Below are positions 3,683 through 18,636 of a stretch of 64,000 nucleotides of DNA, in pieces; within the stretch, counting starts at the first letter, position 1; every line of letters starts with the position of its first letter. The notes under the pieces are model-generated. The model was not told where the DNA came from, did no database searches, and saw nothing but the letters and a program-made list of their open reading frames with translations. Both the position numbers and the translations under genes were made by a program. This DNA is from an uncultured delta proteobacterium (GTDB taxonomy: Bacteria > Desulfobacterota > Binatia > UBA9968), in the NCBI GenBank assembly GCA_963816145.1, contig CAWFJP010000017.1, positions 96,001-160,000 of the forward strand. The letters are read 5' to 3'.

Positions 3683-5647
3683 ATGGCCGTAAGCTTAAAC
3701 GAACATATACGGGCCAAGTGCTTTCATCCGAATGGCGCGTTTGTTGAGTTCGAGAAGGACGAAGTCGAAACATCGATTCCCGAGCGGTTCGAGAATATTG
3801 TAAGGCGACATCCAGATCGGTTGGCGGTTAGGACAAAAGAACATGCAAGAACTTATGACGAACTGAACAAAGAGGCTAATCGGGTCGCTCGAGCCATTTT
3901 GGAGCAGCGGGATGAGGAAGCGCAGCCTGTCGGCCTTTTGCTCGATCATGACGCGCCGGTCATCGCGGCGTTGCTGGGGGCATTGAAAGCCGGTAAGTTT
4001 TACGTGCCGTTGGACCCTTCAAGTCCCCAAAGCAGGCTTGGATATATGCTGAAAGATTCAGATGCGCGTCTGCTTGTCACCAACGGGCGAAATCTTTCGT
4101 TGGCCCGCCAACTGGCTCAGAATAGCTTTCAAATTATCAACATCGATGAGCTTGACTCTAGTCTTTCAAGCGGCAATCTGGGCCTGTCGATTTCATCGAA
4201 GAGAATTGCCTGCATTCTCTACACGTCAGGTTCGACCGGACAACCCAAGGGAGTCCTCCAGAATCATCAAAATGTGTTGCACTTCACTATGACCTACACG
4301 AACGACCTGCATATCTGCACAGACGATCGACTGGCACTTCTACATTACACTAGCGTTTCTGCTTCCATGAGAAATTTATTTGGCGCCTTGCTCAATGGTG
4401 CCGCTATCTTTCCCCTGGACTTTCGGATGATGGGGATGAGTCATCTTATCGCCTGGCTGATAGAGCAAGAAATTACCATCTATCATTCTACCCCAACAAT
4501 GTTTCGCCATTTTGTGGAGTCTGTGGCGGGGATGGATCAGTTTCCTAAACTTCGTTTGATCATTTTATCGGGCGAAGCAGCCACTAAAAGTGACGCGATG
4601 GGTTATCAAGCAAATTTCTCCCCCCACTGTGTCTTCGTGAATATGTGGGGCGCGACTGAGACCGGCTTTGTCAGCCAGTACTTCATTGACAAAGAATCCG
4701 TGATATCGAGTCATACGGTGCCCATTGGCTACGCGATCCAGGATAAGCAAATTCTTTTGCTCGACGAGAGTGGCACCGCAATTGGTTTCAACGAGATTGG
4801 CGAAATCGCCATCAGGAGCCGCTACCTATCCCCTGGATATTGGAGAAGACCTGCTGCGGACCGAGCGGCATTCTTGTCCAATCCATGTGAAGCGGTTGAC
4901 CGGATCTATCGAACAGGGGACCTGGGCCGCATGTTACAAGATGGCTGTGTACTATATCGTGAGCGTAAAGATTTTCAGGTAAAAATCCGTGGTAACCGAG
5001 TAGACCTTGCTGAGGCCGAAGCGGCGCTGCTCGAGCATCCTCTTATTAAAGAAGGTGTCATTGTGGCAAGGGAGGACCCACTCGGAAATAGTCGTTTGGT
5101 GGCCTACGTGACCTCCAACAGAAATTCTGCACCTAACGTTAGCGAGCTGCGAGACTTCTTAAAGGAAAAGCTTCCCGACTACATGATCCCTTCAGCGTTT
5201 GTCTTGCTCGATGCTCTACCTCATACTCCTAATGCTAAGATCGATCGCAACGCCCTTCCCGCGCCGGGGCAAACCAGACCCAAGCTCCAAGTTGCTTTTT
5301 TGCCACCCGCCACTCCCACGGAGCAAACTCTGGTTCAGGTCTGGGCAGATGTTCTCAAGCTCGATCAGGTAGGTGTCGACGACAATTTTTTCGACCTCGG
5401 CGGCAATTCTCTTTTAGCGTCGCAGGTCATCTCGAGGGTAATCAAGACGTTCACCATAGAGCTCCCTATGGCTTTACTGTTTGATTCGCCCACTGTAGCG
5501 AAGATGGCCGTTGTGATCGACGATCATCAGGGGAAATTTCTAGGTGAAAAGGAGTTAGCGAACATCCTGGATGAATTGGAATCGCTGCCGGATGAAAAGG
5601 CGAACAGCTTACTGCGAAGATTGAAACCAAAAAATGAATTATCCTGA
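3683..5647 (+). CDS. Stand-alone NRPS-like adenylation-PCP didomain
   Basis: A3 YTSGSTGQPKG, A7 YRTGDL, A8 RKDFQVKIRGNR, A10 PHTPNAKIDR, PCP DNFFDLGGNSL; no C or TE domain. Confidence 0.9.
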   Translation: MAVSLNEHIRAKCFHPNGAFVEFEKDEVETSIPERFENIVRRHPDRLAVRTKEHARTYDELNKEANRVARAILEQRDEEAQPVGLLLDHDAPVIAALLGALKAGKFYVPLDPSSPQSRLGYMLKDSDARLLVTNGRNLSLARQLAQNSFQIINIDELDSSLSSGNLGLSISSKRIACILYTSGSTGQPKGVLQNHQNVLHFTMTYTNDLHICTDDRLALLHYTSVSASMRNLFGALLNGAAIFPLDFRMMGMSHLIAWLIEQEITIYHSTPTMFRHFVESVAGMDQFPKLRLIILSGEAATKSDAMGYQANFSPHCVFVNMWGATETGFVSQYFIDKESVISSHTVPIGYAIQDKQILLLDESGTAIGFNEIGEIAIRSRYLSPGYWRRPAADRAAFLSNPCEAVDRIYRTGDLGRMLQDGCVLYRERKDFQVKIRGNRVDLAEAEAALLEHPLIKEGVIVAREDPLGNSRLVAYVTSNRNSAPNVSELRDFLKEKLPDYMIPSAFVLLDALPHTPNAKIDRNALPAPGQTRPKLQVAFLPPATPTEQTLVQVWADVLKLDQVGVDDNFFDLGGNSLLASQVISRVIKTFTIELPMALLFDSPTVAKMAVVIDDHQGKFLGEKELANILDELESLPDEKANSLLRRLKPKNELS

Positions 5648-5761
5648 GTGTCGCTTAGTCTATGGAAGTCATCAATAATTTCAAACAAACCAAACCTGCA
5701 CGTGATAGTAGGCTGTGAGGCGATAGCGTTTTGCACAAGCGTTTAGGTGCGGCGTTATTCT

Positions 5762-6099
5762 CTAACATTTTTCCGTAAAAACCTCCGCCGCGTTCGTTGG
5801 CGAGTCGCACCAAGCTTTCGCAAACTGCCGGGGTCGAAATCGTTCAACAACCTCCGTTAGTTCCTCCGCTTCCACTTTCCCCCAAAGACCATCGCTACAC
5901 AGCAGCATCTGATCGCCGCTTTGTAGCTGACTCGATGTGATAACGACGTCGGTCTCGGGTTGTACTCCTAGGGCCTGGAGGATGACGTTCCTAGGCGGAT
6001 GAGTTTTCGCCTCATGGAAACTTAACTGGCCCATGGCGACCATTTGGGCAACCAAGCTCTGATCCTTAGTCAATTGAGTAAGGTTACCATCGGGATCGG
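5762..6099 (-). pseudogene. PP2C/Stp1 Ser/Thr phosphatase fragment
   Basis: LTQLTKDQSLV, RNVILQALG, LLCSDGLWG; N-half absent; frameshifted C-terminal VCESLVRLANERGG ends before the usual DN motif. Confidence 0.8.
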
Positions 6100-6136
6100 G
6101 TTGATGGGGTCGCGTCTTACAGTGCAATGCATTATG
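6100..6136 (+). repeat. Family A repeat, copy 1 (3'-truncated)
   Basis: GTTGATGGGGTCGCGTCTTACAGTGCAATGCATTATG. Confidence 0.8.
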
Positions 6137-6143
6137 GGGAAGA

Positions 6144-6171
6144 AAATGTACTGGGAGTCTTTTTTCGCCTC
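6144..6171 (+). repeat. Family B repeat, copy 1
   Basis: AAATGTACTGGGAGTCTTTTTTCGCCTC; near-identical to 6978-7006. Confidence 0.65.
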
Positions 6172-6268
6172 CTGCGATTGATTGCTCACCGGTGCGGGGC
6201 TATAGCTCCCATCAGAGAAGAAGGATGGTTAATTTGCCGATCCATAAGCGGTCCGGGATAGATCCATC

Positions 6269-6925
6269 ATGAGAGAGACGAAAGGTCACAGGGTACTTAT
6301 CCTGTTAGCGGCGGGGTTGCTATTCGCGGCAAGCGGGTGCGCCGTCAAAAGAATCGTCAGCCAGTGGAGCAATCCCGACTACGCGAACGCAGCGCGGGTT
6401 TTTAAAAAGATCATGGTGGTCGGAGCCATTGAACAAGAAGCCATCCGGCGCAACCTTGAAGATCGGTTTGTCGCCGCGCTGCGCGCGGCCGGCGTCGATG
6501 CATTGCCAAGTTACCGGCTCGTCGCAGACCCTGGAAAAGATATCGAGGGGAGTGTCAAAGCGGCCGTGCAAAGCGCCGGCGCCGACGGCGTGCTCGTCAC
6601 TCGGTTAATACGAGTTGAGCAGCGCACCGATGCGAGCCCAGGCGATTTCCCGCCCAACTTCGGATTTGGCTATTATAATTGGTACTATCCGGGATGGTAC
6701 GGCGCCGGCTTCTACACGCCGCCAAGCTACTATCAGTATCCGGTATATTACTCCGAGACCACGCTGTCTGACGCAACCAGGAATGAGATTGTCTGGACCG
6801 GCACGGTCCGCACCATCGACCCGGAGAACGCCAATGAGGCGATTGCAGAGTACGTCGCCACGGTTGTCACCGCGCTGAAGGACAATCAATTGCTACCCGG
6901 GACATCGCCGCGAGGCGGCTTGTAG
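6269..6925 (+). CDS. Putative lipoprotein (DUF4136-like)
   Basis: Signal peptide with ASG-C lipobox; Gly/Tyr-rich loop; C-terminal IVWTG motif. Confidence 0.7.
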   Translation: MRETKGHRVLILLAAGLLFAASGCAVKRIVSQWSNPDYANAARVFKKIMVVGAIEQEAIRRNLEDRFVAALRAAGVDALPSYRLVADPGKDIEGSVKAAVQSAGADGVLVTRLIRVEQRTDASPGDFPPNFGFGYYNWYYPGWYGAGFYTPPSYYQYPVYYSETTLSDATRNEIVWTGTVRTIDPENANEAIAEYVATVVTALKDNQLLPGTSPRGGL

Positions 6926-6977
6926 GTACTTCATCCTATGCAGGCAGTCGTGGAATAACTTCCTGCTGACGGAGAGT

Positions 6978-7006
6978 AAATGCACGGGGGAGTCTTTTCT
7001 CGCCTC
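6978..7006 (+). repeat. Family B repeat, copy 2
   Basis: AAATGCACGGGGGAGTCTTTTCTCGCCTC. Confidence 0.65.
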
Positions 7007-7076
7007 TGAGTTACACTCTCTTTATCCAAGCAAAATTTATCGGAGGGACGATGCTCTGCCAATCCTTTAGTTCAGC

Positions 7077-7130
7077 GTTGATGGGGTCTCGTCTTCCACT
7101 GCAATAAATGTATGAGCGCAATTCCCGGCC
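7077..7130 (+). repeat. Family A repeat, copy 2 (54 bp)
   Basis: GTTGATGGGGTCTCGTCTTCCACTGCAATAAATGTATGAGCGCAATTCCCGGCC; 44/54 ungapped identity to 15514-15567. Confidence 0.85.
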
Positions 7131-7196
7131 TGGACTCGGCGTCCGCACTCGGACTCGCAACTCTTGTTACGCATAAGATTGCGCATACGACGGCCT

Positions 7197-8489
7197 TTAG
7201 GCCTGCTTATGCCGTATGCCGGCAAGATCCTCCGCGCGCAGCCGGTAGCGTATGACGTTGCCCTCATGCAGACCGTGAAACTCCTGGCCAACGTAGCTGA
7301 CGACCCGCTTACGGTCCGCATCCGGGATGCCTGCCTCGACGGCCATGGCCATGACGTTTTCAGGACGGAAATCTTTCCAGTCAAGCACCCAGCTGCGCAC
7401 AGCCTCGCGGACGAAATCGCGATAGACCAATGCCGCCTTTTCCGGTGTATCGACTTCGGCCCGGAACACTTTGTAGTTCTGCGCCGAAGCCAGATATGCG
7501 TCGATGTAAACCCCTCGTAACAGGGAAACGTTGTTCAACTCGTAAACGCCAATAAGACCGTCGATATACTCGCCGTCGTTCATGGTGAGAAACGAGAGCG
7601 GCGCGAGGTCGGCTTTCAACAACGGAACATTGGACACAATGCGCGAAGTTCGCTTGTTCACATCCTCGAACGCCTGCAAATAGGGGATGTGAACCAGCAG
7701 GAAGAAGGACTGCTCGAACGGGTCCGTGATTGCCGTGGCTTTTTGAACAAGGATGTCAAACTCCTCCTCGATCGCGAACCGGTCGTCAAGCGGGCTGTAG
7801 CTTGAATGGGAAATGCCGACGGTCATGCGGCGCAGCCGTCCCGCCATGGCCGGGTCGGCAAGAAGGCCGTCGGCGAGCAGTGCGTGAATATTGCATAGAT
7901 CGCTGCGGCCGATCGTTATCTGGGCGAGATTGTCGACGACATATTGGATGGCTTCCTTGTGATTGAGGATCATGACCGCTTCCTTGCGGTCCTTGCCGGA
8001 GGCTTCTTCCCCGAAGCGGATCATCCGCTCGGTTTGAAGAATATTGTAGGTGTTCCCTTCCATGCGCGATGAGGCCCAGGAAAGGTCCACGAGAAGCTTT
8101 TAAAGTATACGACGCGCATATGTGCCGGCAGGAACCGGCAGCGGCTGTTGCCGTCCGGCCTCGTGCAACCGCTGCTGGTCATTCCCGCTGAGATAGAACG
8201 TCTTGTTCGGGAGATCGCGATCGACAAATTCCTTCGAGTAGGTCACCAGCCTTCGGCGGTTATAGGGCGTTTGCACATGAGCGCGCACGACGGCCGGACC
8301 TGCTAGGCTGTAGCCGGTGGCGCGGGCTTTGCCCGAAACCTCAAGCTTGCCTTCATCGATAAGTTTCTTAAGGGCGCGCCAGATCGTTGGCGGGCTTACG
8401 TCGGGAGCGACGTGCTGCCGGATATCATCGCGGCCCGCGCCGGGATGCGCTGCAATGTAGTCCAGTAAAGCTTGGTTATTGAGTGCCAT
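7197..8489 (-). pseudogene. HTH-Fic family protein interrupted by an in-frame TAA
   Basis: ORFs 8100-8489 and 7197-8090 share a frame (...YARRIL*KLLVDLSWASSRMEGNTY); wHTH-like N-terminus; Fic-variant motif HIPYLQAFEDVNKRTSR. Confidence 0.85.
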
Positions 8490-8694
8490 GAAACGATCCG
8501 TTGAAACTATGAAACGATTATGTCTTTAAAATATAAGAAATTTTCTCATATTCAATATATCGTTTCATACATTGTGAAACGATATACAAAACTGCCTTGC
8601 AACCAAACAGGTCCAGGCGTGAAACGATTAAATCCCCGCCAATAAAGGAAAATCCGTTATCTTTAGCGAATCGTTGCAGATACTCTGAAACGAT
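8489..8694. promoter_or_regulatory. Array of TGAAACGAT operator-like sites upstream of the HTH-Fic gene
   Basis: Forward copies at 8489, 8502 (1 mismatch), 8510, 8575, 8620, 8686; reverse copies at 8559 and 8670 (1 mismatch); two inverted pairs, both with a 7-nt spacer. Confidence 0.7.
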
Positions 8695-8786
8695 TTTTCA
8701 GAATGAGATATCACGTGGACATCACCAAAAATCAGGACAACTCTGGCTGAGTAATTCAGTCAAGCTGGGAAAGCAGGACAAACCTT

Positions 8787-10022
8787 CTACCTCGCCTCGA
8801 ATGTCGGCAGCCAGCCGCCGGGAGGATTGAGATCGATGAGATCGCGCTGCTTCGATGCGCGGCCCGAGATCAGGTAGCGCTCGCCGCGATAGGACCAGAC
8901 TCGAAGATCGGTCCAGAGTGGCGCTTCGCTATCATTACCTGCTGAGACCAGAACAGGTTTCGGCACCGTTTTCTGGGCAACATAGGAGGGCTTCTTGCGC
9001 AGCAGTTGGCGTAAACGGCCTTTGCCGACTTGGGAGCTAGCGAGCACGCCGTGGCCAGCGAAGCCCTGCGCGGGTTTGAAGAAAAAAGCCGCTTTGCTGG
9101 CGACAATCGCGTCGAGATTCTCCGCTTTCAGAAGATATGTCTCCGGCACATGGGCGCTAAGCACGGCTCGTTCATCGGGAGTAATCCCGATCTCCCGGTC
9201 CCAATGCGGTAGGGAAAGAAACTCAAGCAAGCGCTTGTCGCTCCGCGTCGCGTAGCTAAACGGATTGGGCGCGACGTAGACTTTGCCGCTTAGATATGCG
9301 GCGCGCAGCGGCGCAAAGATTTCGCCATCCCAGAAAAAGTCAGTGGCGCGGTTAATGACAAAAACCACCGGCGCGTCGCCCAAGAGAAGCGCCTTTCCAT
9401 CCCAGCGCAACTCGTCAGGCGCCGCAATTTCCGCGCGCCGGCCGCGTTTGCGCAACAGCTCGCGGAGCAGCAATAATTCCTGATAGAATTTTCCCCCGGC
9501 GAGCGCCGCCGAGGTCTCGACAATCAAGAACAGGCCCTGCGGTTTTGCGCCGGAAAACTCTCCGCTCTCACGGTCGATAAATCCAGCCACGCGGTTTGCA
9601 ATTGCGTCAACCGTCGGCGGCGGCAAGACGGTTGAGGCATTCGTGAGATCGGACAATTCGTAGAAAAACCGGTTGATCAGAGCGGCGTAGAGAAACCCTG
9701 AACCGTTGTCATTGCACTCGATAAGCTGCCAGCCTTGTTCCGGCGAGAGGTGGAAATCCCAAGCGGTAAAAAAGCAGATCTCCCGACGTTGCGCGCGGGC
9801 GATCTCGGGCGCCTTCGCGGTGACCCGCCATAGCCAGGCGGCACTGGTTGTTATGCGGTCGAACAGTCGAATGAACTCATCGATTTGAACCAGTGTTGTG
9901 TGCGGAATCAGTTGGGCGAAGGGAACCACGGAAAACTCTTGCGGCACCTCGGGCATTCCGGACGCCGAAAGCGCACTGAAAAATTCAGCTTTTGGAAAAC
10001 TCGTCCGCTGAATTGTCGGCAT
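8787..10022 (-). CDS. Hypothetical protein, probable circularly permuted ATP-grasp/glutathionylspermidine-synthase-like ligase
   Basis: WDFHL...LIECNDNGSG (ExN), FFFKPAQGFAGHG, YVAQ, DLRVW motifs in permuted ATP-grasp order. Confidence 0.6.
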   Translation of the reverse strand: MPTIQRTSFPKAEFFSALSASGMPEVPQEFSVVPFAQLIPHTTLVQIDEFIRLFDRITTSAAWLWRVTAKAPEIARAQRREICFFTAWDFHLSPEQGWQLIECNDNGSGFLYAALINRFFYELSDLTNASTVLPPPTVDAIANRVAGFIDRESGEFSGAKPQGLFLIVETSAALAGGKFYQELLLLRELLRKRGRRAEIAAPDELRWDGKALLLGDAPVVFVINRATDFFWDGEIFAPLRAAYLSGKVYVAPNPFSYATRSDKRLLEFLSLPHWDREIGITPDERAVLSAHVPETYLLKAENLDAIVASKAAFFFKPAQGFAGHGVLASSQVGKGRLRQLLRKKPSYVAQKTVPKPVLVSAGNDSEAPLWTDLRVWSYRGERYLISGRASKQRDLIDLNPPGGWLPTFEAR

Positions 10023-10140
10023 ATGGGCTAGTTTGAGGTCTTAAATCGTCACAGCTCTCGGTAAGGATACCTTCGTGACCATCTCTTGCCATCAACAACG
10101 CTCGCGCAATCGTGCGCACGAGAGGCGGAGAATTTCCCGA

Positions 10141-10192
10141 GGTGCAGACTCAAACGATCAATCGTCGAGTCCCCGGTCGAATGATCTGACCC
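10141..10192. repeat. Degenerate GGGTCAGAC...TCTGACCC palindromic repeat related to family A
   Basis: GGTGCAGACTCAAACGATCAATCGTCGAGT...GATCTGACCC; related halves at ~10219 (TGCAAGCCAGACCC) and ~12305 (AGGGTCAGAC). Confidence 0.45.
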
Positions 10193-10267
10193 TAACAAAC
10201 TCCGTGGATTTCATCCCGTGCAAGCCAGACCCGCCGTTACCCTGTCCTTACCGGAAAACAGTTATGT

Positions 10268-12250
10268 TCATTTGCTCGGAATTTTCGCTACTACTTCGCC
10301 ACTCAGCCGCTTGGTCTCCTCCTCCGTAAGCGATTCCAATTCAGTCAAGATTTCGTTCATCTTTGTCCCGTCGAGAGTTTGTCCCCAAGAGTCGGTAATC
10401 ACCACCGCCATTTCTGCAACCGTCGGAGTTCGAAATAAAGATCGAACAGACATTTCTAACTCAAATTCCTTGATGACCTGAGAGACAATTTGAATGGCCA
10501 GAAGAGAATGTCCCCCCAATTCGAAAAAGTTGTCGTGGATACCTACGTGCGCGAGGCCGATAGCATCAGCCCAAATTCTTGCCAGGGTCTCCTCGACGGG
10601 GGTGCGAGGAGCTACATAATCGACTCGCAATTCCGAGCACCGCTGCTCGGGCTCGGGCAGGGCACGACGATCTACCTTGCCGTTGGAAGTCAGCGGCATC
10701 GCGTCGAGCACGACAAACGCTGAAGGAATCATGTGCTCCGGCAATTTCTCGGCCAACGCGCGCCGTAGTGAACTTATACTAGGCGCCGGCTTACCGGCGG
10801 GTACGAGGTAGGCAATAAGGCGGATATCGATTCCCTGGCGTTGTGTCACCACAACAGCCTCTCTGATCCCGTCAACCGCCCGCAACGCGGTCTCCACCTC
10901 GCCGATTTCCAACCGGTTGCCGCGAATTTTTACTTGAAAATCTTTTCGTCCGGCGTGGTAAAGCAAGCCGTCGGGAAGCATGATTCCGCGATCTCCAGAG
11001 AGAAATGTGCGTTCCTCTCCGCCATCGGTGCGAAATTTATCCCGCGTGAGATCCGGCTGGCGCCAGTATCCCGGAGAGATATAACGGCTTCTGATGGCAA
11101 TTTCTCCTGTTTGACCAAAGCCAAGCGGCTGCCCGTTATCATCGAGGACAAGAATCTCGGTGCCGTCGCAAGGGTAGCCAAGCGGAATAATCTCATCGGT
11201 GATTTTTGTTTGCTTGTCGATATAGTAGCAAGCGACACTCCCGGTCTCGGTCGAGGCAAACCAGTTGACGAAAATGCACTCTGGAGAAAAATACTTTTTA
11301 TAAAGCTCCACGTCGGTTTGACGGACCGGTTCATTGCCCACCCTGACAACCCGTAGTGCCGGGAACTGTTCGTTCCCATTGAGAGCCGTTGCAAAACTGC
11401 AAAAGACGCTGGCGCCCGAGATAAATAGGGTAATGCCCTCTGTGATAAGCCAGTTGGCCAGATCCGCAAGCCCATCCTCGGGAATATTCCAAGGGTAAAG
11501 AGCCGCGCCCGCCGCCAACGCACTTATGACGATTTTCATTCCCTGACCGCCGGTGCAGGTACCGAGAAGTGTCAATCGGTCATCCGGCTGGATGCGAAGA
11601 TTATTGACATAAGCCATTACGCTATGAAGCGCGTTTCGGTGGGTCTGAGCAACTCCCTTCGGCTGTCCGGTTGAGCCGGAGGTGTATAGGATAAAAGCGA
11701 TTGTTTCCGGTGCTACGGTGAGTTCGATATTGTCATCGGCCAAACTCGCGTCCAGTTCGTCGATGTTAATTACCCGCGCCGTTCTATCGGCTAACTGATT
11801 GGCTTCGGAAACATAGTTGCTATTCGTTACGATTAACCCGCTTCCCGAGTCGGCAAAGATATTGCGGCTCCTTGCTGGTGGGCTCGTGGAATCGAGGGGC
11901 ACACAGCACTTACCGGCTTTCATGACTCCGATGATCGAAGCGATCATATCGGCATCATGTCCGAGCAGTAGAGCGATGGGCTCCGCTTCATTGCCACGCT
12001 GCGATAGCAGCGCACGCGCGATACGATTGGCGATCGTATTAAGATCACCGTAGCTGAGTCGTCGGCCCTTAACGCGGACGGCAACCCGATCATGGTCATG
12101 TGCAACCTGTCGCTCGAAATGAGCTGGGATCGACTGCTCGATTTCACTTTTTGTGAATTCAATAAACTTGCCGGCGGGATGAAAACATTTCGCTCGAATG
12201 GCTTCCTGCTCCGGCGGCAGCTTATATTTATTGGGGATTAAATCGGTCAT
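10268..12250 (-). CDS. Stand-alone NRPS-like adenylation-PCP didomain (paralog of 3683-5647)
   Basis: YTSGSTGQPKG, GRKDFQVKIRGNRLEIGEVE, PLTSNGKVDR, PCP DNFFELGGHSL. Confidence 0.9.
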   Translation of the reverse strand: MTDLIPNKYKLPPEQEAIRAKCFHPAGKFIEFTKSEIEQSIPAHFERQVAHDHDRVAVRVKGRRLSYGDLNTIANRIARALLSQRGNEAEPIALLLGHDADMIASIIGVMKAGKCCVPLDSTSPPARSRNIFADSGSGLIVTNSNYVSEANQLADRTARVINIDELDASLADDNIELTVAPETIAFILYTSGSTGQPKGVAQTHRNALHSVMAYVNNLRIQPDDRLTLLGTCTGGQGMKIVISALAAGAALYPWNIPEDGLADLANWLITEGITLFISGASVFCSFATALNGNEQFPALRVVRVGNEPVRQTDVELYKKYFSPECIFVNWFASTETGSVACYYIDKQTKITDEIIPLGYPCDGTEILVLDDNGQPLGFGQTGEIAIRSRYISPGYWRQPDLTRDKFRTDGGEERTFLSGDRGIMLPDGLLYHAGRKDFQVKIRGNRLEIGEVETALRAVDGIREAVVVTQRQGIDIRLIAYLVPAGKPAPSISSLRRALAEKLPEHMIPSAFVVLDAMPLTSNGKVDRRALPEPEQRCSELRVDYVAPRTPVEETLARIWADAIGLAHVGIHDNFFELGGHSLLAIQIVSQVIKEFELEMSVRSLFRTPTVAEMAVVITDSWGQTLDGTKMNEILTELESLTEEETKRLSGEVVAKIPSK

Positions 12251-12349
12251 TTGATTTGTTTGCGCATCTCAGCAAACGGCTGGCGCAATTGTGAGGCAAT
12301 TCTGAGGGTCAGACATCTATGACTCGAAAATCAGATCACGCTTCCAAGC

Positions 12350-12515
12350 TCACATCTCGTAAAAGCGCACTGTGGTATGAACGAGCAGATTTCGCTTGCT
12401 CTCCTAACTGATATCGTTCCGTTTAAGGAAAATGTCGACCGCGCCGTAGAGGAGGTCCCCGTCCGGGAAAGTCGAACGATAAACCCAACACTGGTCGTTT
12501 CTATTGCCAAAATGG
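12350..12515 (-). pseudogene. 3'-end relic of an amidohydrolase paralogous to 21510-22643
   Basis: Translates DQCWVYRSTFPDGDLLYGAVDIFLKRNDIS*ESKRNLLVHTTVRFYEM*, matching DQCWVYGSDIPHGDRLYGAVDVFLKRDDISEESKRKLLVDNTARFYGL*. Confidence 0.85.
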
Positions 12516-12537
12516 TTATTGCCTGCTGCCATTCGCA

Positions 12538-13569
12538 CTACTTTGCCTCGAGTATCTGTTTCACTCGACTCACCACCGCGGGCTCGATTTCATACAAGCC
12601 GTTCACCATCTTTTCGATGCCGGGTCCATCGATCGGGTCGATTTCGAGCTTGGCCTTTTCCGCCTCGGCCATAAACTGAGGATCCGCCAGAGTGCTGACG
12701 AAAGCTTTTTGCAGTGTTCGTAGGCGCTGTTCGGGCACTTGCGGCGGGAGCGAATAGAGTCTCTGCTTGCCGTAAAGCTCGGCGGCGATGCGCAGGAGTT
12801 TTTTCCCCTCGTCGGTCTTGGCGTAATCGATGGCGAGCGGGACACCCTTGAGCTCGGGATGAGGCTCGAGCATCGTCTGGAGCACGACATGGATCTGTTT
12901 GGCCTTGAGCGCGTTGGCCCAGGTCACCTTCGCCGATTGCCAGCCAAAGGCGCAGGTACCGTCGACTTCGCCGGTTTCCGCGGCAATCCTGATGTCGGCG
13001 GTGCCCTTGTAGCCCTCGATCAACTGCAGCGGGAAATCCGTCGCGGCGGCTAGCAACTTGGTATCGTCGGTGCCGCTGGTGCCGGGGCCGATCGCTCCGA
13101 GCTTGACCCGTGTTTTGGCCTTACGCCAATCCTCCGCAGTTCTGATCCCGCTGCGTTCGGTCGTGATGCACACTAGCGCATCCGCCGTCGGCATGCCGAG
13201 CCAGCCAAACTTGCGTCCCTCGAATAGCACCGCCGGGTTGCCCATCATGTGCTGCAAAATCAGCGGGCCGGACCAATGGCCGATCACCGTGCCATCGCGG
13301 GGAGCACTGTTATAGGTATAATTCGCCGCGATAAGCATCGCCGCTCCAGGCATGTTCTGAACGACAGTAGCCGGTTTGCCCGGAACGAATTGCGGGAAGT
13401 GGCGCGCGATCAGTCTGGTGTAGGTATCGTAGCCGCCGCCGGCGGTGCCGCCGACGACCCACTGGATGGTTTTGCCTTTGTAGAAGTCCTCGACCGTGGC
13501 CGCTCGCGCCGAGACCGACAATACCGAGATAATGATCGGCAGCAAAAATACGTCGAGCGCTTTAACCAT
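12538..13569 (-). CDS. Tripartite tricarboxylate transporter substrate-binding protein (Bug/TctC family), orphan
   Basis: Signal peptide; FYKGKTI, GGGYDTYTR, VQNMPGA, GYKGTADI motifs. Confidence 0.88.
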   Translation of the reverse strand: MVKALDVFLLPIIISVLSVSARAATVEDFYKGKTIQWVVGGTAGGGYDTYTRLIARHFPQFVPGKPATVVQNMPGAAMLIAANYTYNSAPRDGTVIGHWSGPLILQHMMGNPAVLFEGRKFGWLGMPTADALVCITTERSGIRTAEDWRKAKTRVKLGAIGPGTSGTDDTKLLAAATDFPLQLIEGYKGTADIRIAAETGEVDGTCAFGWQSAKVTWANALKAKQIHVVLQTMLEPHPELKGVPLAIDYAKTDEGKKLLRIAAELYGKQRLYSLPPQVPEQRLRTLQKAFVSTLADPQFMAEAEKAKLEIDPIDGPGIEKMVNGLYEIEPAVVSRVKQILEAK

Positions 13570-13679
13570 GCGCCACCTCCTTACGGATCGGCTATCGTCG
13601 CGGAACGTAGTTTGTTCGCTAGGCTCATGTCAAGGGTCCAGACGCTGCGTCGGGGACAACGACGCGAATTTGGATATTG

Positions 13680-13743
13680 CTCGCGCCCAGACCGCAAAGA
13701 TAACAATTTATTTATTTCCGTTCCTTTGCGTGCTTTGCGCGAG
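13680..13743. repeat. REP-like imperfect inverted repeat
   Basis: CTCGCGCCCAGACCGCAAAG ... CTTTGCGTGCTTTGCGCGAG around an AT-rich loop. Confidence 0.6.
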
Positions 13744-13951
13744 ATGGTCCGATTTTCGGTTGACGCGGTACCTTGCCGTGTTATGCCAGTTGCTAAGAAC
13801 AGTAAACAACCATATCTTCAGAAAAGAAATTACCGACACGTAGGCAGAGCGCGGTTCGACCTGATTCGTTTTGCAATTCCGTCCTTGTCTTCATTCGAGC
13901 CACGATGACTACCATTGAGAGGCTCCGCCGTACCTGCACCGGAAGCTAAGC

Positions 13952-15268
13952 ATGAACGATACTCTTGTCACTGAGAAATCAGTCAAAAAGCGGCAACCGT
14001 TTTTTTTCGGCTGGTACATGGTCGCCGCGAGTGTCGTTACCAACACGATCTTCTCCGCCGCCTATTTCCAGGGCTTCGGCGTTCTCATCATCCCGATAGA
14101 ACGGACCTTCGGCTGGGACCGCTGGGTCGTTTCAGCCGCTATGTCGTTGCGCCAGTTGGAATCCGGCATTATCAGTCCCGCTGTCGGATTTCTGTTGGAC
14201 CGCTTCAGCGCGCGTAGATTGATTTTCTGGAGCGCGGTAATCTCGGGCGTCGGCTTCATCGGCCTCGGCTTCACTACCGGCATCGTCACGTTTTTTCTCT
14301 GCTTCGTGATCATTTCCCTGGGCGCATCAGGGGTCAGCCACGCGGTTACCTGGCCGGTGATCATCTCCCGCTGGTTTCGCCGCAACCGCGGCCTGGCCAC
14401 GGGGCTGGCGGTAACCGGTCCCATCTTCGGCTCGCCCATCGTTATACTAAACACGCAGATCGAGGAGGCGTACGGCTGGCGCGTCGTCCTGTTCGGCTAC
14501 GGCGCCCTGGTCTTAGTCGGCGTCACGCTGCTCAGCATGCTGGTACGTGACCGGCCGGAGCCCTATGGTTTGCGGCCAGATGGCGACCCGCCCGAGGAGA
14601 GCGCTTCGACGAAACGTCCCACCAGCTCATCGCTGCGCGGCACAGACGGCGGGCTCACGCTCCGCGCGGTGTTCCGCACCAAGGAGTTCTGGCTATTCAC
14701 GAGCTACTTGTCGGGGACCTTCGCCGTAAACTCCGCCTTTCAAATCCACATGATTCCCTACTTCCAGCAAGACATCGGATTTACCGCGGCCTGGGCGGCC
14801 GTGGTCATGTCCATCGTCTTCATCATCAGCGGTATTGGCCGCATCGGCGGCGGCTATCTGCTCGACAGGATGGACTATCGCGCCGTCCTGGCGGCGGTCG
14901 CCGCGATGATGGGCATCGCCCTCTTGTACCTTCAGGTGGTGGCGGTCAAAACGGTCTGGGCCACATTGCCCTTCGCGCTGATGTTCGGCGTCAGCTTCGG
15001 CTGCCTGGTGCCCATGCGCGGTGCCGTCGGCAGCATTATGTTCGGTACCCGGGCGATTGGCAAAGTGTTGGGCATACTCCAGGGAGGGCCGATCGCGGCG
15101 GGAGTCATCGGCCCCTTCGTCATGGGTATAATCTTCGACCTGCACGGCAACTACTCCGCGGCGATCTGGGGACTCATCGTCACCAGCGCCCTCATGGTGC
15201 CGCTGTCCCTGGCCATGGCCTCGCCCACCGAGTTGGCCACGCGTATCGCACAGCAGCAGCGGATTTGA
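13952..15268 (+). CDS. MFS transporter (oxalate/formate or monocarboxylate-like)
   Basis: About 12 hydrophobic segments; FFGWYMV, GFLLDRFSAR (motif A), WFRRNRGLATG. Confidence 0.88.
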   Translation: MNDTLVTEKSVKKRQPFFFGWYMVAASVVTNTIFSAAYFQGFGVLIIPIERTFGWDRWVVSAAMSLRQLESGIISPAVGFLLDRFSARRLIFWSAVISGVGFIGLGFTTGIVTFFLCFVIISLGASGVSHAVTWPVIISRWFRRNRGLATGLAVTGPIFGSPIVILNTQIEEAYGWRVVLFGYGALVLVGVTLLSMLVRDRPEPYGLRPDGDPPEESASTKRPTSSSLRGTDGGLTLRAVFRTKEFWLFTSYLSGTFAVNSAFQIHMIPYFQQDIGFTAAWAAVVMSIVFIISGIGRIGGGYLLDRMDYRAVLAAVAAMMGIALLYLQVVAVKTVWATLPFALMFGVSFGCLVPMRGAVGSIMFGTRAIGKVLGILQGGPIAAGVIGPFVMGIIFDLHGNYSAAIWGLIVTSALMVPLSLAMASPTELATRIAQQQRI

Positions 15269-15269
15269 C

Positions 15270-15419
15270 CAGGCTGCAGAAAAAGACCTATATGCTTCGT
15301 TGCGCCTCAACCGCCTCGGTCGAATTCGTGGTCGCGTAGCGTGTTCGCGCTCGTGTGGGTTTCACGGTCACGTTCACGGTCCATGGGCGCCTCGCCTCTG
15401 GATCTTATTGAGCAGCCTG
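15270..15419. mobile_element. MITE-like element with terminal inverted repeats
   Basis: CAGGCTGCAGAAAAAGA ... TCTTATTGAGCAGCCTG; extra degenerate end TTTTCAGCAAACTG just downstream; no credible gene inside. Confidence 0.6.
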
Positions 15420-15513
15420 CAAGAGTTTTCAGCAAACTGCTAGGTGTTTCCCACCTGGAGAAAAGACATATGGTCATTAGCTGGACGGTCAAGTAGGCAT
15501 GGATCTTCGCGCT

Positions 15514-15567
15514 GTTGATGGGGTCGCGTTATGCATTGCAATAAATGTGTGATCGCAAGACCTGGCC
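15514..15567 (+). repeat. Family A repeat, copy 3 (54 bp)
   Basis: GTTGATGGGGTCGCGTTATGCATTGCAATAAATGTGTGATCGCAAGACCTGGCC. Confidence 0.85.
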
Positions 15568-15694
15568 AGAAATCTGTTTACGAAATTTGCTTTAATAAAA
15601 AATCCACTGGTCTGTATACTCACAAGTCAGACTAACTCGCACCATGCCACCTTGACAGTTGTCAAATTCGTCCAGATGCGCGAGATTATCAGCT

Positions 15695-16749
15695 ATGACA
15701 ACCATCAACCAAAATCGCACACGGACGAATGCCGCCCTTGATCCCTCATCTATCCTGCAAACCGCTTTCGGTTTTTGGCATTCCAAAGTCCTGCTCACGG
15801 CCGTCGAGTTCGGCGTGTTCACGAAACTCGCCGGTCGCCGTCTCACCGGCGCAGAGCTTGGCGCGGAATTGCAATTCCACCCGCGCGCGATCGCGGATTT
15901 TTTTGATGCTCTCGTCGCGATGAAGTTTCTCGGCCGCGAAGGTGACGGCTCGCAGGCGAGGTATTTCAACACGCCCGAAGGCTTATTGTTCCTCGACGAG
16001 GCCAGCCCGCGTTACATCGGGGGCTGGCTGGCGATGTGCAACGCGCGGCTCTTCAAATTCTGGAACGATCTCCCAGAGGCGTTGCGGACGGGCCGAGCGC
16101 AGAACGAGATCAAGCATGGCCAGAAGGGCATGTTTGAAGAACTCTACTCGGATCTACCCCGACTGGAGCAATTCATGGGCGCGATGACAGGCCTCTCGCG
16201 GATCAACTTCGAGGCGTTCGCGGACAAATTTGACTTCGCGAAGTTCCAAACCCTCTGCGACGTCGGCGGCGCCACCGGCCTGCTGAGCGTTGAAGTCGCA
16301 AAGAAACACTCGCACCTCAAATGCACCAGCTTCGACCTGCCAGTGGTCGAACCCATTGCGAAGAATCACATAGCCGCCGCCGGGTTGGAGAACCGCGTCG
16401 TCACGGCATCCGGTGATTTCTTCAAAGACCCACTGCCGAAGGCCGACGTCATCACGATGGGCATGATTCTGCACGACTGGAATCTGGAGAAAAAGATGCA
16501 TCTCATCCGCTCCGCGTACGATGCTTTGCCGCCCGGCGGCGCGCTGGTAGCCATTGAAGCGCTGATTGACGACGCCCGCCGCGAGAACGTCCAGGGGTTG
16601 TTGATGTCGCTCAACATGCTCATCGAATTCGGCGACGCCTTTGATTATTCCGGCGCGGACTTCCGCAAGTGGTGTGGGAGGTCGGTTTCAAACACTTCGA
16701 AGTCATCCATCTCGCCGGCCCATCGAGTGCCGCGGTAGCCTACAAGTAG
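15695..16749 (+). CDS. O-methyltransferase (dimerisation + Methyltransf_2 type), frameshifted near the C-terminus
   Basis: CDVGGATG, GDFF, ILHDW; after KWC (~16676) the expected tail EVGFKHFEVIHLAGPSSAAVAYK* lies in another frame ending at 16749. Confidence 0.85.
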
Positions 16750-16792
16750 CCGGAAACGATCCTATGTCGGAATAAAATCACGGCAAGGGAAT

Positions 16793-16859
16793 GTTGATGG
16801 GGTCGAGTTGATGGATCGCGCCTTGCACTGCAACAAATGTATGATCCTAAACCCCGGCC
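16793..16859 (+). repeat. Family A repeat, copy 4 (duplicated 5' end)
   Basis: GTTGATGGGGTCGA then GTTGATGGATCGCGCCTTGCACTGCAACAAATGTATGATCCTAAACCCCGGCC. Confidence 0.8.
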
Positions 16860-17019
16860 GCAAGTCCTGGATGAGATCTAACAAACTTTCGGCGACACTG
16901 ATCCTGCGAAACTTGAAGCGTCGTTCAGTTCAATCGGTGTCCGTCGTCAGTTCTGCAAGACGATCGAGATTTACTGCTGAAATGGCCGCCGTTCCCCCGG
17001 AGACCAAGCCGCTAGCGGG

Positions 17020-18010
17020 GCTGTGGGAAGTCCAACGGGAAGTGGTGTTAAAGGCAAGCCGCAAGGAAGAACCTAAGCAGGCCACCATCGACCAGGACGC
17101 CACGGTGATCGAGAGCCACAAAGAACAGAGCCGCATGACGTATTTGGGCGAGCGTGGGTATCAGCCGGTGATCAACTACTGGGTGGAGCAGGACTTGATT
17201 TTGGCCGACGAGTTTCGCGATGGCAATGTGCCGGCGGGGATGGATTGCCTGAGTTCGTTTATGCGCACCATCCGGGCACTGCCTGCGAGCATCGAGACGC
17301 TTTACTTTCGTTCCGACAGTGCGGCCTACCAGCACAAGCTGTTAGATGCGATGCGCGATGGGATAGAACTTTATGGCAAGCAAGTGCCAGTCTATTTTGC
17401 CATCAGCGCCGATGTCAGCGAGGCGCTTCGGGGAAAGATCGTCTCATTATCGGACTCCGCGTGGAAACCGTTGAGGAGACTGACCGAGAAGGGATGGATC
17501 GAAGGCAGAAAAGAGTGGGCCGAGGTCGAGTTTATCCCCTCGGATGCATCGGTGAAGAAGGCCATGAAGCCGGACCGCTATTTAGCGATCCGAGTCAGGC
17601 CCTGGCAGACCGAGCTATTTTCAGACGGCAACAGCTATCACTACTACGCGGTGGTCACCAACCGTTGGGAGATCGAGGGCGAGGAACTGTTGCGCTGGCA
17701 GCGCGAGCGCTGTGGGAGTGTGGAGAAGGTCCATGATGCATTGAAGAACGATCTGGCGGGAGGGGTAATGCCGTGCGGGAGGTATTACGCCAACGCGGCG
17801 TGGTGGCGACTCAACTGTCTTTGCTACAACGTGATCTCGATCATGAAGCGCAAGGGGCTGCCGCAAAGCTTTTGGCCGGTGCGGATGAAGGCTCTGAGGT
17901 TTCATTTGATCGGGGTAGCCGGCAAGGTGGTCTCGCACGCGCGCATGACGTTTCTGAAAATCACCGAAGGGCTGATTGGCTATCGGCAGGCGAGAAGCCA
18001 GTGGATTGAC
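17020..18010 (+). mobile_element. IS1380-family transposase remnant (N-terminus missing; ends approximate)
   Basis: TIDQDAT, GYQP, EFRDGNVPA, FRSDSA, RCGSVEKVHDALKND, ANAAW motifs; no terminal inverted repeats recognised. Confidence 0.8.
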
Positions 18011-18153
18011 CTTCTTGACAAGATCTTGGCAACTGGCGAATATTTCAATCGGTTGTTTTTTGTGGAATCGGAAAGAAAAAATTTGGAATTCGGCCGGTCA
18101 TTCGGCAAAAGACTTAAATGTAAGTCCTCATCTCCTCGTCTCGCGGGGGTCGC

Positions 18154-18636
18154 ATGTCAGAAAAATCAAAGCCAGTGGCCGTGACCGCAGCCGAGGCGCC
18201 GGCGCGAACTAAGCCATCTGTCTATCCTGAGCCTTTCGCGTCGCGCATGGTGGGCAGAGAGAAGCGCCCCCTCGGCGATCTCTTTGGCCTGACAAACTTT
18301 GGCGTCAACCTCACGCGCTTGGCTCCTAACGCAGCTTCGGCCCTTCGCCATGCTCACACCAAGCAAGACGAGTTTGTTTATATCCTCCAAGGCCGGCCAA
18401 CACTCCACACCGATGAAGGTCGAACCCGGCTCTCTCCTGGAATGTGCGCAGGTTTCAAGGCAGGCACAGGCAATGGTCACCGCTTGGTCAATGAAACCGC
18501 AGAAGAGGTTGTCTACCTCGAAGTCGGCGACCGAACGCCGGGGGACCAAGGAACCTATCCCGATGACGATCTCAAAGCCTTGCTCGTTGAGGGAAAGTGG
18601 AAGTTCGTCCACAGAGATGGCACGGCCTATGTGTGA
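18154..18636 (+). CDS. Cupin domain protein
   Basis: GLTNFGVN, RHAHTKQDEFVYIL, FKAGTGNGH, YPDDD. Confidence 0.88.
   Translation: MSEKSKPVAVTAAEAPARTKPSVYPEPFASRMVGREKRPLGDLFGLTNFGVNLTRLAPNAASALRHAHTKQDEFVYILQGRPTLHTDEGRTRLSPGMCAGFKAGTGNGHRLVNETAEEVVYLEVGDRTPGDQGTYPDDDLKALLVEGKWKFVHRDGTAYV

Follow-up and report, generated by a model that had tools for sequence, protein, structure and literature searches.

A clustered, co-oriented 54-nt repeat in an uncultured delta proteobacterium, probably a worn miniature derivative of TIRtron-type transposase units

The repeat copies at the locus

The window analyzed here is a 64-kb stretch of contig C17 (positions 96001–160000) in the genome of an uncultured delta proteobacterium (G000; 7.82 Mb, 31 contigs), and its left part carries several copies of a palindromic intergenic repeat of about 54 nt, the nature of which is the subject of this analysis. 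Coordinates without a contig prefix are those of the whole window, and the genomes of relatives are designated G004, G009, G017, G018, G019 and so on, G019 being that of a sister species. Each copy is an inverted dimer, with a left arm (GGGGTCGCGTCTTGCA) and a right arm (TGCAAGACCTGGCCCC) separated by a spacer of ~18 nt. An initial annotation had placed four co-oriented copies at 6100, 7077, 15514 and 16793/16807 and had seen in them a non-integron cassette system that builds an island gene by gene. The four copies are present on the plus strand as stated, together with a relic and a partial duplicate:

6100..6132, plus strand: copy 1, leader GTTGAT and left arm; only the first ~32 nt are kept
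7077..7131, plus strand: copy 2, full length; right arm eroded (GCAATTCCCGGCC); profile E-value 2.7e-16, DNA fold z +2.4
12465..12520 (limits approximate), plus strand: relic, heavily eroded, on the 3′ side of a minus-strand gene for a 343-amino-acid (aa) protein; local score 14
15514..15568, plus strand: copy 3, the best of those in the window and full length; changes in the left arm (GTTATGC); E-value 9e-16, fold z +1.0
16793..16806, plus strand: partial tandem duplicate of 13 nt from the 5′ end of the element (GTTGATGGGGTCG), immediately 5′ of copy 4
16807..16860, plus strand: copy 4, full length; right arm eroded; E-value 2.7e-14, fold z +0.8

A 29-nt consensus (≤3 mismatches) matches three of the window copies and has no match in 100 shuffles. 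The right half of copy 1 is swapped for sequence running into the upstream region of a DUF4136 lipoprotein gene (6269–6925), which is the sole open reading frame (ORF) between copies 1 and 2; an O-methyltransferase gene (15659–16738) is the sole ORF between copies 3 and 4, and the ORF map thus agrees with the one-gene intervals described earlier. Consensus and profile scans likewise agree that positions 21–64 kb of the window hold no copy. Among the sites previously listed as degenerate relatives, 1279–1341 and 10141–10232 score inside the null and are not supported, while near the third, given as ~12305, a relic does exist, at about 12465–12520. Its score falls between the 95th percentile (11) and the maximum (15) of the null, and in alignment it is the positional orthologue of clearer copies in G019 and G004. 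The ORF at 5762–6127, taken for a truncated PP2C gene, has no Pfam match at 1e-5.

Other repeated sequences adjoin these copies. The lipoprotein gene is also flanked, immediately inside copies 1 and 2, by a further short direct repeat with the sequence AATGyACkGGG(G)AGTCTTTTyTCGCCTCy (6145–6172 and 6978–7007), the upstream member of which is conserved in G004. Between copy 3 and an MFS gene, the spacer 15264–15440 forms a repeat of ~170 nt, with copies of 75–89% identity on C13 of G000 and in several places in G018 and G019.

Distribution and folding of the family

With a profile built from the four window copies, iterated once and run through the 7.82-Mb genome by nhmmer at maximum sensitivity, 15 copies are found at E ≤ 0.01; C17:34,379–112,860, a 79-kb stretch of the contig on which the window begins at 96 kb, accounts for 13. 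At E < 0.3 the number rises to 18, with 14 copies in the same stretch and the others on C18, C27 and C31. With 13 of 17 copies placed in 79.5 kb, the binomial tail for this clustering is 3e-23, and the plus strand carries 13 of the 14 copies on C17 (P = 0.002), so that the clustering in an island and the strand bias for which the initial annotation had proposed a scan are both found. All copies are intergenic, with neighbor genes in either direction, and their orientation is fixed to the chromosome and not to the neighbors; the spacing from one copy to the next ranges from 0.1 to 31 kb. Being clustered, co-oriented and unevenly spaced, the copies therefore form neither a genome-wide family of repetitive extragenic palindromes (REPs) nor a regular array. 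A degenerate 12-nt arm pattern is uninformative at the scale of the genome, because its reversed control matches about as often (121 matches vs 129).

The repeat family is present across the genus. Its 20-nt core (≤2 mismatches) occurs in 10 of the 24 other genomes of the genus, with 1–5 or more copies each, as well as in one of five genomes of a second family and none of 11 genomes of a third, the reversed control giving three matches in 41 genomes. In G019, a co-oriented cluster extends over C7:135–195 kb (all seven matches at E ≤ 1e-3 on the plus strand), and in G004:C9 two plus-strand copies are found at 279–282 kb and two minus-strand copies at 955–959 kb. Between two G017 copies with unrelated flanks there are just 3 differences over the 55 positions that run from the TTAAT leader to the end of the right arm. 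Some positions are orthologous between species: copy 1 of the window corresponds to G004:C9:959306–959342 (L051:11342–11306), with the same truncation and the same downstream sequence, and a copy at C17:95047 corresponds to copies in G009 and G019. An exact 20-mer scan of the genome contigs gives nine loci, five with the full element and four with the left arm only or likely due to chance.

The master sequence derived from the best copies (L041, L035, L032, L034, L088 and L093) is (A/G)TTRAT-GGGGTCGCGTCTTGCA-TTGCGACAAATGTGTGAT-TGCAAGACCTGGCCCC. Pairing of the arms, which the initial annotation had proposed from the window copies, holds in the family consensus and in the near-consensus copies of relatives, which adopt the expected 16-bp hairpin with energies between −8 and −18 kcal/mol and, in five of six, z between −1.7 and −5.1. 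It does not hold for the copies of the window, whose four folds (z +0.4 to +2.4) are no better than those of shuffles; single-stranded DNA folds of seven G000 copies, one of them on both strands, range from z −1.3 to +2.4. In 14 copies of G000, 74.9% of the cells of the proposed stem are paired, vs ≤50% in slid controls and 74.1% in column shuffles, and 161 of 500 column shuffles reach the observed value, so that the stem displays no covariation. Two G.T positions of the stem are replaced by Watson-Crick pairs in some copies. Since the copies of relatives fold and those of G000 do not, the latter are eroded versions of a hairpin element.

Kinship with TIRYT-associated repeats

TIRtrons are described as RAYT-like genes with long terminal inverted repeats, and their enzymes as TIRYTs (Di Nocera et al. 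2013, PMC3733652); GGGGWSAS is common to many such repeats, and the repeats make up moderately abundant families of singles, dimers and clusters (PMC3733652). Most TIRYTs are assigned to subclass 2.1, with Bac_DnaA_C, HTH_23 or HTH_28 tails (Quentin et al. 2018, PMC6006769). The passages of these two papers drawn on here report no experiments, TIRYT genes and their inverted repeats having been catalogued in 2013 (PMC3733652, PMC6006769).

A unit of comparable organization is found inside the syntenic repeat cluster of G019, where the ORF C7:137859–138683 combines a Y1_Tnp domain (6e-11) with an HTH_23 domain. The sequence AGGGTCAGGTCTTGCATTGCCAC, identical to the left arm of the repeat at 19 of 23 positions, ends 22 nt upstream of the ATG of this gene, and CGGATTGCAAGGTCTGGCCCG, identical to the right arm at 16 of 21 positions, lies downstream of its stop codon. 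Among the loci of genus homologues of the G019 protein (two G005 loci excluded), GGGTCAGGTCTT precedes the ATG by 44–54 nt in 13 of the 15 with upstream sequence (≤2 mismatches, 11 exact), and the inverse motif AAGACCTGACCC (≤3 mismatches) is found downstream in seven of 16. The repeats that flank these TIRYT genes read GGGGTCAG or GGGTCAGG, both of which fit GGGGWSAS. The related genes encode proteins of 275–320 aa with a helix-turn-helix (HTH) tail and are bordered by terminal inverted repeats; the NCBIfam model REP_Tyr_transpos scores 65 bits on the family enzyme, vs a cut-off of 80. Given the arm matches to the inverted repeats that flank TIRYT genes, the 54-nt repeat would therefore consist of both terminal inverted repeats joined by a short spacer.

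In the genome under study, the closest homologue of the G019 transposase is 42% identical to it and is flanked by other repeats, and at E ≤ 1e-60 the G019 protein has no match there, vs matches in 12 of the 31 genomes overall. Adjacency to a RAYT or a tyrosine recombinase, which had been proposed as a check, is seen in the G019 cluster and not in C17:20–125 kb, which holds no recombinase other than one DDE fragment. Three genes of G000 encode ~320-aa proteins with Y1_Tnp and a DnaA_C-like HTH; two are flanked by 22-nt inverted repeats with GGGTC and the third by a weaker 24-nt pair. Two repeat types of these genes also occur as 10–15 extra copies in the genome. They are GGGTCAGGCCTGAGTATTGACT, with 15 copies at ≤4 mismatches, and GGATTAGGGTCAAATCTTTACT, with 10 copies, which flank genes at C29:1488–2493 and C3:258766–259825 and are found solo elsewhere, for instance at C4:445–583 kb and at C17:69352 and 87025; G000 therefore harbors several TIRtron lineages. 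Three further Y1 genes of G000, of ~165 aa, have no match to the repeat profile in their loci at E ≤ 5, and TnpB (PF07282) has no match in this genome.

The likeness to TIRtrons rests on several traits: a Y1 HUH gene whose product ends in an HTH (HTH_23 or Bac_DnaA_C) and inverted repeats starting with GGGGTCAG, seen with arms related to the repeat in a sister species and not in G000; extra repeat copies away from the gene (15–18 in G000); and the lack of a GTAG tag. The family differs from the known TIRtron repeats in that its dispersed unit is a fixed inverted dimer with a conserved 18-nt spacer and a TTRAT leader, in that nearly all copies lie in one syntenic variable region and in one orientation, and in that the copies of G000 are all eroded, the only full-length resembling unit being that of G019 in a lineage of uncultured genomes. 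REPINs are described as non-autonomous hairpins of two inverted short repeats, thought to be mobilized in trans (Bertels & Rainey 2011, PMC3116915, PMC3337134), and RAYTs as single-copy Y1 tyrosine transposase genes flanked by the same repeats, the systems being vertically inherited (PMC3116915, PMC3337134). The family of the window is likewise a non-autonomous, vertically inherited inverted-repeat hairpin, but without GTAG at the foot of the palindrome, since its copies begin with (A/G)TTRAT-GGGGTC; it comprises about 18 clustered copies and not hundreds of dispersed ones, and its presumed enzyme comes from a longer, HTH-tailed clade. Elements of the IS200/IS605 family (IS608, ISDra2) use Y1 HUH chemistry on hairpin ends, with strand-specific insertion coupled to replication. 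The chemistry is shared, and replication-coupled insertion would explain the single orientation, whereas the present elements have true terminal inverted repeats and not subterminal hairpins, lack TnpB and are associated with a transposase about twice as long as the TnpA of that family (~150 aa). The TTGAT of the leader is also what we take to be the target pentanucleotide of ISDra2.

The repeat is thus probably a worn, miniature and non-autonomous derivative of a TIRtron, made of the inverted ends of a Y1 HUH transposase element. It is best read as belonging to a type already described, with the family itself as an addition to the TIRYT-associated repeats, and not as a new cassette-building system. 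The initial annotation had suspected a hairpin substrate of the HUH/RAYT type served by an enzyme in trans and distinct from an ordinary genome-wide REP, and this part of it fits both the match of the arms to TIRYT repeats and the clustered, co-oriented distribution. The parent TIRtron would be a unit of ~0.9 kb carrying a Y1 HUH transposase with a C-terminal HTH (a TIRYT, relative of RAYTs) between terminal inverted repeats starting with GGGGTCAG, and the mini-element would retain only the left repeat (GGGGTCGCGTCTTGCA..), the ~18-nt spacer and the right repeat (..TGCAAGACCTGGCCCC). Inverted arms across such a spacer allow a 16-bp hairpin to form in a single strand, comparable to a REPIN with its two REPs. 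An ancestor's TIRYT probably multiplied these inverted-repeat dimers through single-stranded DNA at the replication fork; action on single-stranded DNA would account for the single orientation, by analogy with IS200/IS605 and REP/RAYT systems, and short-range hopping around a master gene would account for a cluster around the G019 gene. A few copies may have been carried passively with duplicated genes, as suggested for the C17:95047 copy and the ~12.5 kb relic at paralogues of the 343-aa gene. The copies of G000 would now be inert fossils, offering at most short homologies at which rearrangements end. Binding, cutting and moving of the repeats by a TIRYT are putative throughout, and we infer each step of enzyme action.

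Several observations weigh against this origin. REP-like families are not usually so concentrated (13 of the 15 copies within 1% of the genome), and the local hopping invoked for it is an assumption; strand-specific insertion cannot be tied to replication, because the GC skew of C17 is uninformative as a link between orientation and replication. The left arm of the mini-element (GGGGTCGC) agrees with GGGGWSAS at 7 of 8 positions, and the one full-length unit whose arms resemble the repeat past its first 12–16 nt is that of G019, with departures from the repeat consensus at 4 of 23 positions in one arm and 5 of 21 in the other; arms identical to this consensus were found in no unit. Near-identical copies in unlike contexts could reflect selection and not recent movement. 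None of the nine exact 20-mer loci has a Y1 gene within 1.6 kb. For two near-perfect copies (L035 and L041), empty sites were sought in 30 other genomes, and in none are both flanks joined, only single flanks being found. As for the terminal inverted repeats and target-site duplication by which classical, DDE-mobilized miniature inverted-repeat transposable elements are recognized, the inverted arms are present and L035 and L041 offer no empty site from which a duplication could be read.

Rearrangement, gene content and alternative explanations

Synteny links the C17 region to G019:C7 and G004:C9, with blocks in another order, and several block ends lie 60–300 nt from a copy. Homology to G004 starts or stops precisely at the 5′ boundary of copy 1, in line with the breakpoint placed there by the initial annotation; G004 has copy 1 linked to the lipoprotein gene in a different setting, and G019 has the lipoprotein gene without copy 1. 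The O-methyltransferase segment (15435–18013) is missing from the syntenic site in G019, G004 and G018, and these sites are devoid of the repeat. A block formed of a repeat, a 426-aa ORF (C17:93674–94954) and a second repeat is replaced in G019 and G004 by unrelated filler of 226 or 247 nt, again without the repeat. The idea that the lipoprotein gene sits inside a split repeat was rejected, since upstream of the beta-lactamase-fold gene the junction of G004 with G019 is found 37 nt past the repeat.

Contigs of four soil or wetland metagenomes, from four studies, contain no joint of copy 1 to copy 2 or of copy 3 to copy 4, a weak point, because contigs drop rare variants. They bridge 5968–8033, 5961–8533, 5528–7752, 14951–15874 and 16556–16996 joined to 18003–18587, and thereby span copy 1, the gene and copy 2, as well as both edges of the O-methyltransferase gene. 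Downstream of copy 4, the IS1380 fragment noted earlier is recovered as a DDE_Tnp_1_4 match in a segment with limits at 16997–18002 (1006 bp). Contigs of three of the four metagenomes join 16996 directly to 18003, and in these three the summed depth of the segment is 107–258, vs about 10 in its flanks; the segment is therefore a mobile piece with multiple copies that has inserted here in this strain, and the ORF 16808–18184 is chimeric.

The main alternative to a decaying TIRtron derivative is that of mobilization as cassettes or composite units, in which co-oriented mini-elements would supply left and right ends and the gene between them would be moved by a Y1 enzyme in trans or by another recombinase, resulting in gene-by-gene assembly. 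The clustering and common orientation of the copies are compatible with it, as are the three genes (426-aa ORF, lipoprotein and O-methyltransferase) each flanked by two copies, the lack of the O-methyltransferase segment in three relatives, the replacement of the 426-aa block by filler, the linkage of copy 1 and the lipoprotein gene in G004 with homology starting at the edge of the element, and the many synteny blocks that begin or end within 60–300 nt of a copy. Yet three adjacent occupied spacers are observed vs 1.65 expected at the local density (P ~ 0.2), so that bracketing of single genes is not above chance, and the spacing ranges from 0.1 to 31 kb. Where relatives are without the genes, the syntenic sites are without the repeat too, at the O-methyltransferase and 426-aa loci in G019 and G004 and at the former in G018; G019 keeps the lipoprotein gene without copy 1, and the junction upstream of the beta-lactamase-fold gene falls outside the repeat. 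Block ends coincide with gene ends anyway, their proximity to copies having been seen without a control of all spacers. The copies are eroded, G000 has no close homologue of the G019 transposase, and the arms are the ends of a known type of transposase unit; the lack of copy-to-copy joints points in the same direction, with the reservation made above for contigs. We consider this mode of assembly improbable. The same holds for its specific form in which pairs of co-oriented terminal-inverted-repeat dimers act as the ends of composite units, a TIRYT moving whichever gene a left arm and the following right arm enclose, to which we give little credence. Were it true, the arm–gene–arm layout of TIRtrons would serve again for such cargo as the lipoprotein and O-methyltransferase genes, and the 80-kb variable region would have been built and reshuffled gene by gene by an HUH-driven, single-strand counterpart of integron cassettes. 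Overall, what the initial annotation saw is confirmed in part, the repeat itself being real, and its interpretation is supported in part: the hairpin and HUH side was right, and the central claim of a cassette system is not supported. In the window, the look of a cassette architecture most likely arises as an ordinary side effect of repeats in decay.

A second explanation, equally doubtful, is that the repeat serves the host as an RNA hairpin (a stabilizer of 3′ ends or a terminator, like some REPs) or as a protein-binding DNA site and is maintained by selection. At least one gene 3′ end adjoins a copy in 10 of the 11 occupied spacers, some copies keep orthologous positions across species and the G.T positions of the stem change to Watson-Crick pairs in some copies, but covariation is no higher than in shuffles, the window copies fold no better than shuffles and decay of the copies is visible, at orthologous sites included. 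Scans for sigma-70 promoters and terminators over 5900–17100 give no terminator-like call or T-run at the copies and no promoter-like call inside them; the numbers of calls equal those of shuffles, and the nearest (15592–15620) is about 25 nt past copy 3. An Rfam scan of positions 1–22000 at E ≤ 1 gives no match, and the orientation of the copies follows the chromosome and not the neighbor genes. Other functional sites considered by eye were dropped: a sigma-54 reading of the GG-N10-GC of the left arm, because most right-hand neighbor genes are on the other strand, and Xer/dif-like and CRP/FNR-like readings, the inner palindromes being absent.

That the copies are divergent attC sites of an integrase-less cluster (CALIN) served by the two integron integrases of G000 is hardly credible: both integrases exceed the TIGR02249 cut-off and the repeats are hairpin-capable, co-oriented, clustered and intergenic like attC sites, but the integrases are encoded on C15 and not on C17, canonical attC-like sites (GCCTAAC...GTTAGGC, 79–98 nt) adjoin one of them at C15:175–183 kb, a simple site scan of C17 gives seven scattered matches with none clustered at 34–113 kb, GTTGATG stands at the 5′ end only, with none of the pairing of a 5′ RYYYAAC with a 3′ GTTRRRY that marks attC sites, no pair of AAC and GTT boxes (R′′/R′) and nothing conserved upstream, and the spacing is irregular (0.1–31 kb), not the ~0.5–1.5 kb of dense cassette arrays and not about 1 kb. 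The integrase genes themselves lie in the regions C15:175478–185001 and 202187–203131, and the attC-like sites are 3′ of the first intI, which suggests a less common layout with intI and cassettes in one direction.

Duplicated sequences of other kinds are frequent in the region. Two paralogous genes with AMP-binding and PP-binding domains (stand-alone adenylation-carrier proteins), at 3683–5647 on the plus strand and 10268–12250 on the minus strand, are inverted with respect to each other and ~71–76% complementary over matched stretches; they bracket a G000-specific insert of 11 kb that holds copies 1 and 2. The 343-aa protein (12541–13569, minus strand), one of a large family of paralogues, has paralogues at C17:92155–93293 and about 95137–95867 and no Pfam or NCBIfam match, and each of five sister genomes contains dozens of DNA matches of ~65–85% to the 13.18–13.5 kb part of its gene. 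A repeat copy is found on the 3′ side of two paralogues of this gene, namely the C17:95047 copy and the relic at ~12.5 kb. At the G019 site matching the O-methyltransferase insertion, L083:2057–2290 (G019:C7:200057–200290) is a sequence of ~160–220 nt with at least 20 copies of ~78–84% across the contigs of G000, and thus a further small repeat that is abundant in these genomes. Lastly, a 300-nt direct duplication (C17:80807–81106 and 82605–82904; L012:2807–3106 and 4605–4904), 99% identical and 1.8 kb apart, encloses small ORFs including a PIN-domain gene, and each of its copies has a GTGTCAGGCTTTGGTTATTTG motif like the TIRtron inverted repeats of G017.

As remnants of TIRtrons, the repeats would place in one genus a series that runs from intact arm–gene–arm units through near-perfect hairpin mini-elements to eroded fossils at orthologous sites, all of them in one syntenic, heavily rearranged region and in one orientation. 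The genus would then be a usable comparative system for asking whether TIRYTs mobilize their repeats via single-stranded DNA and whether such repeats mark or promote rearrangement.

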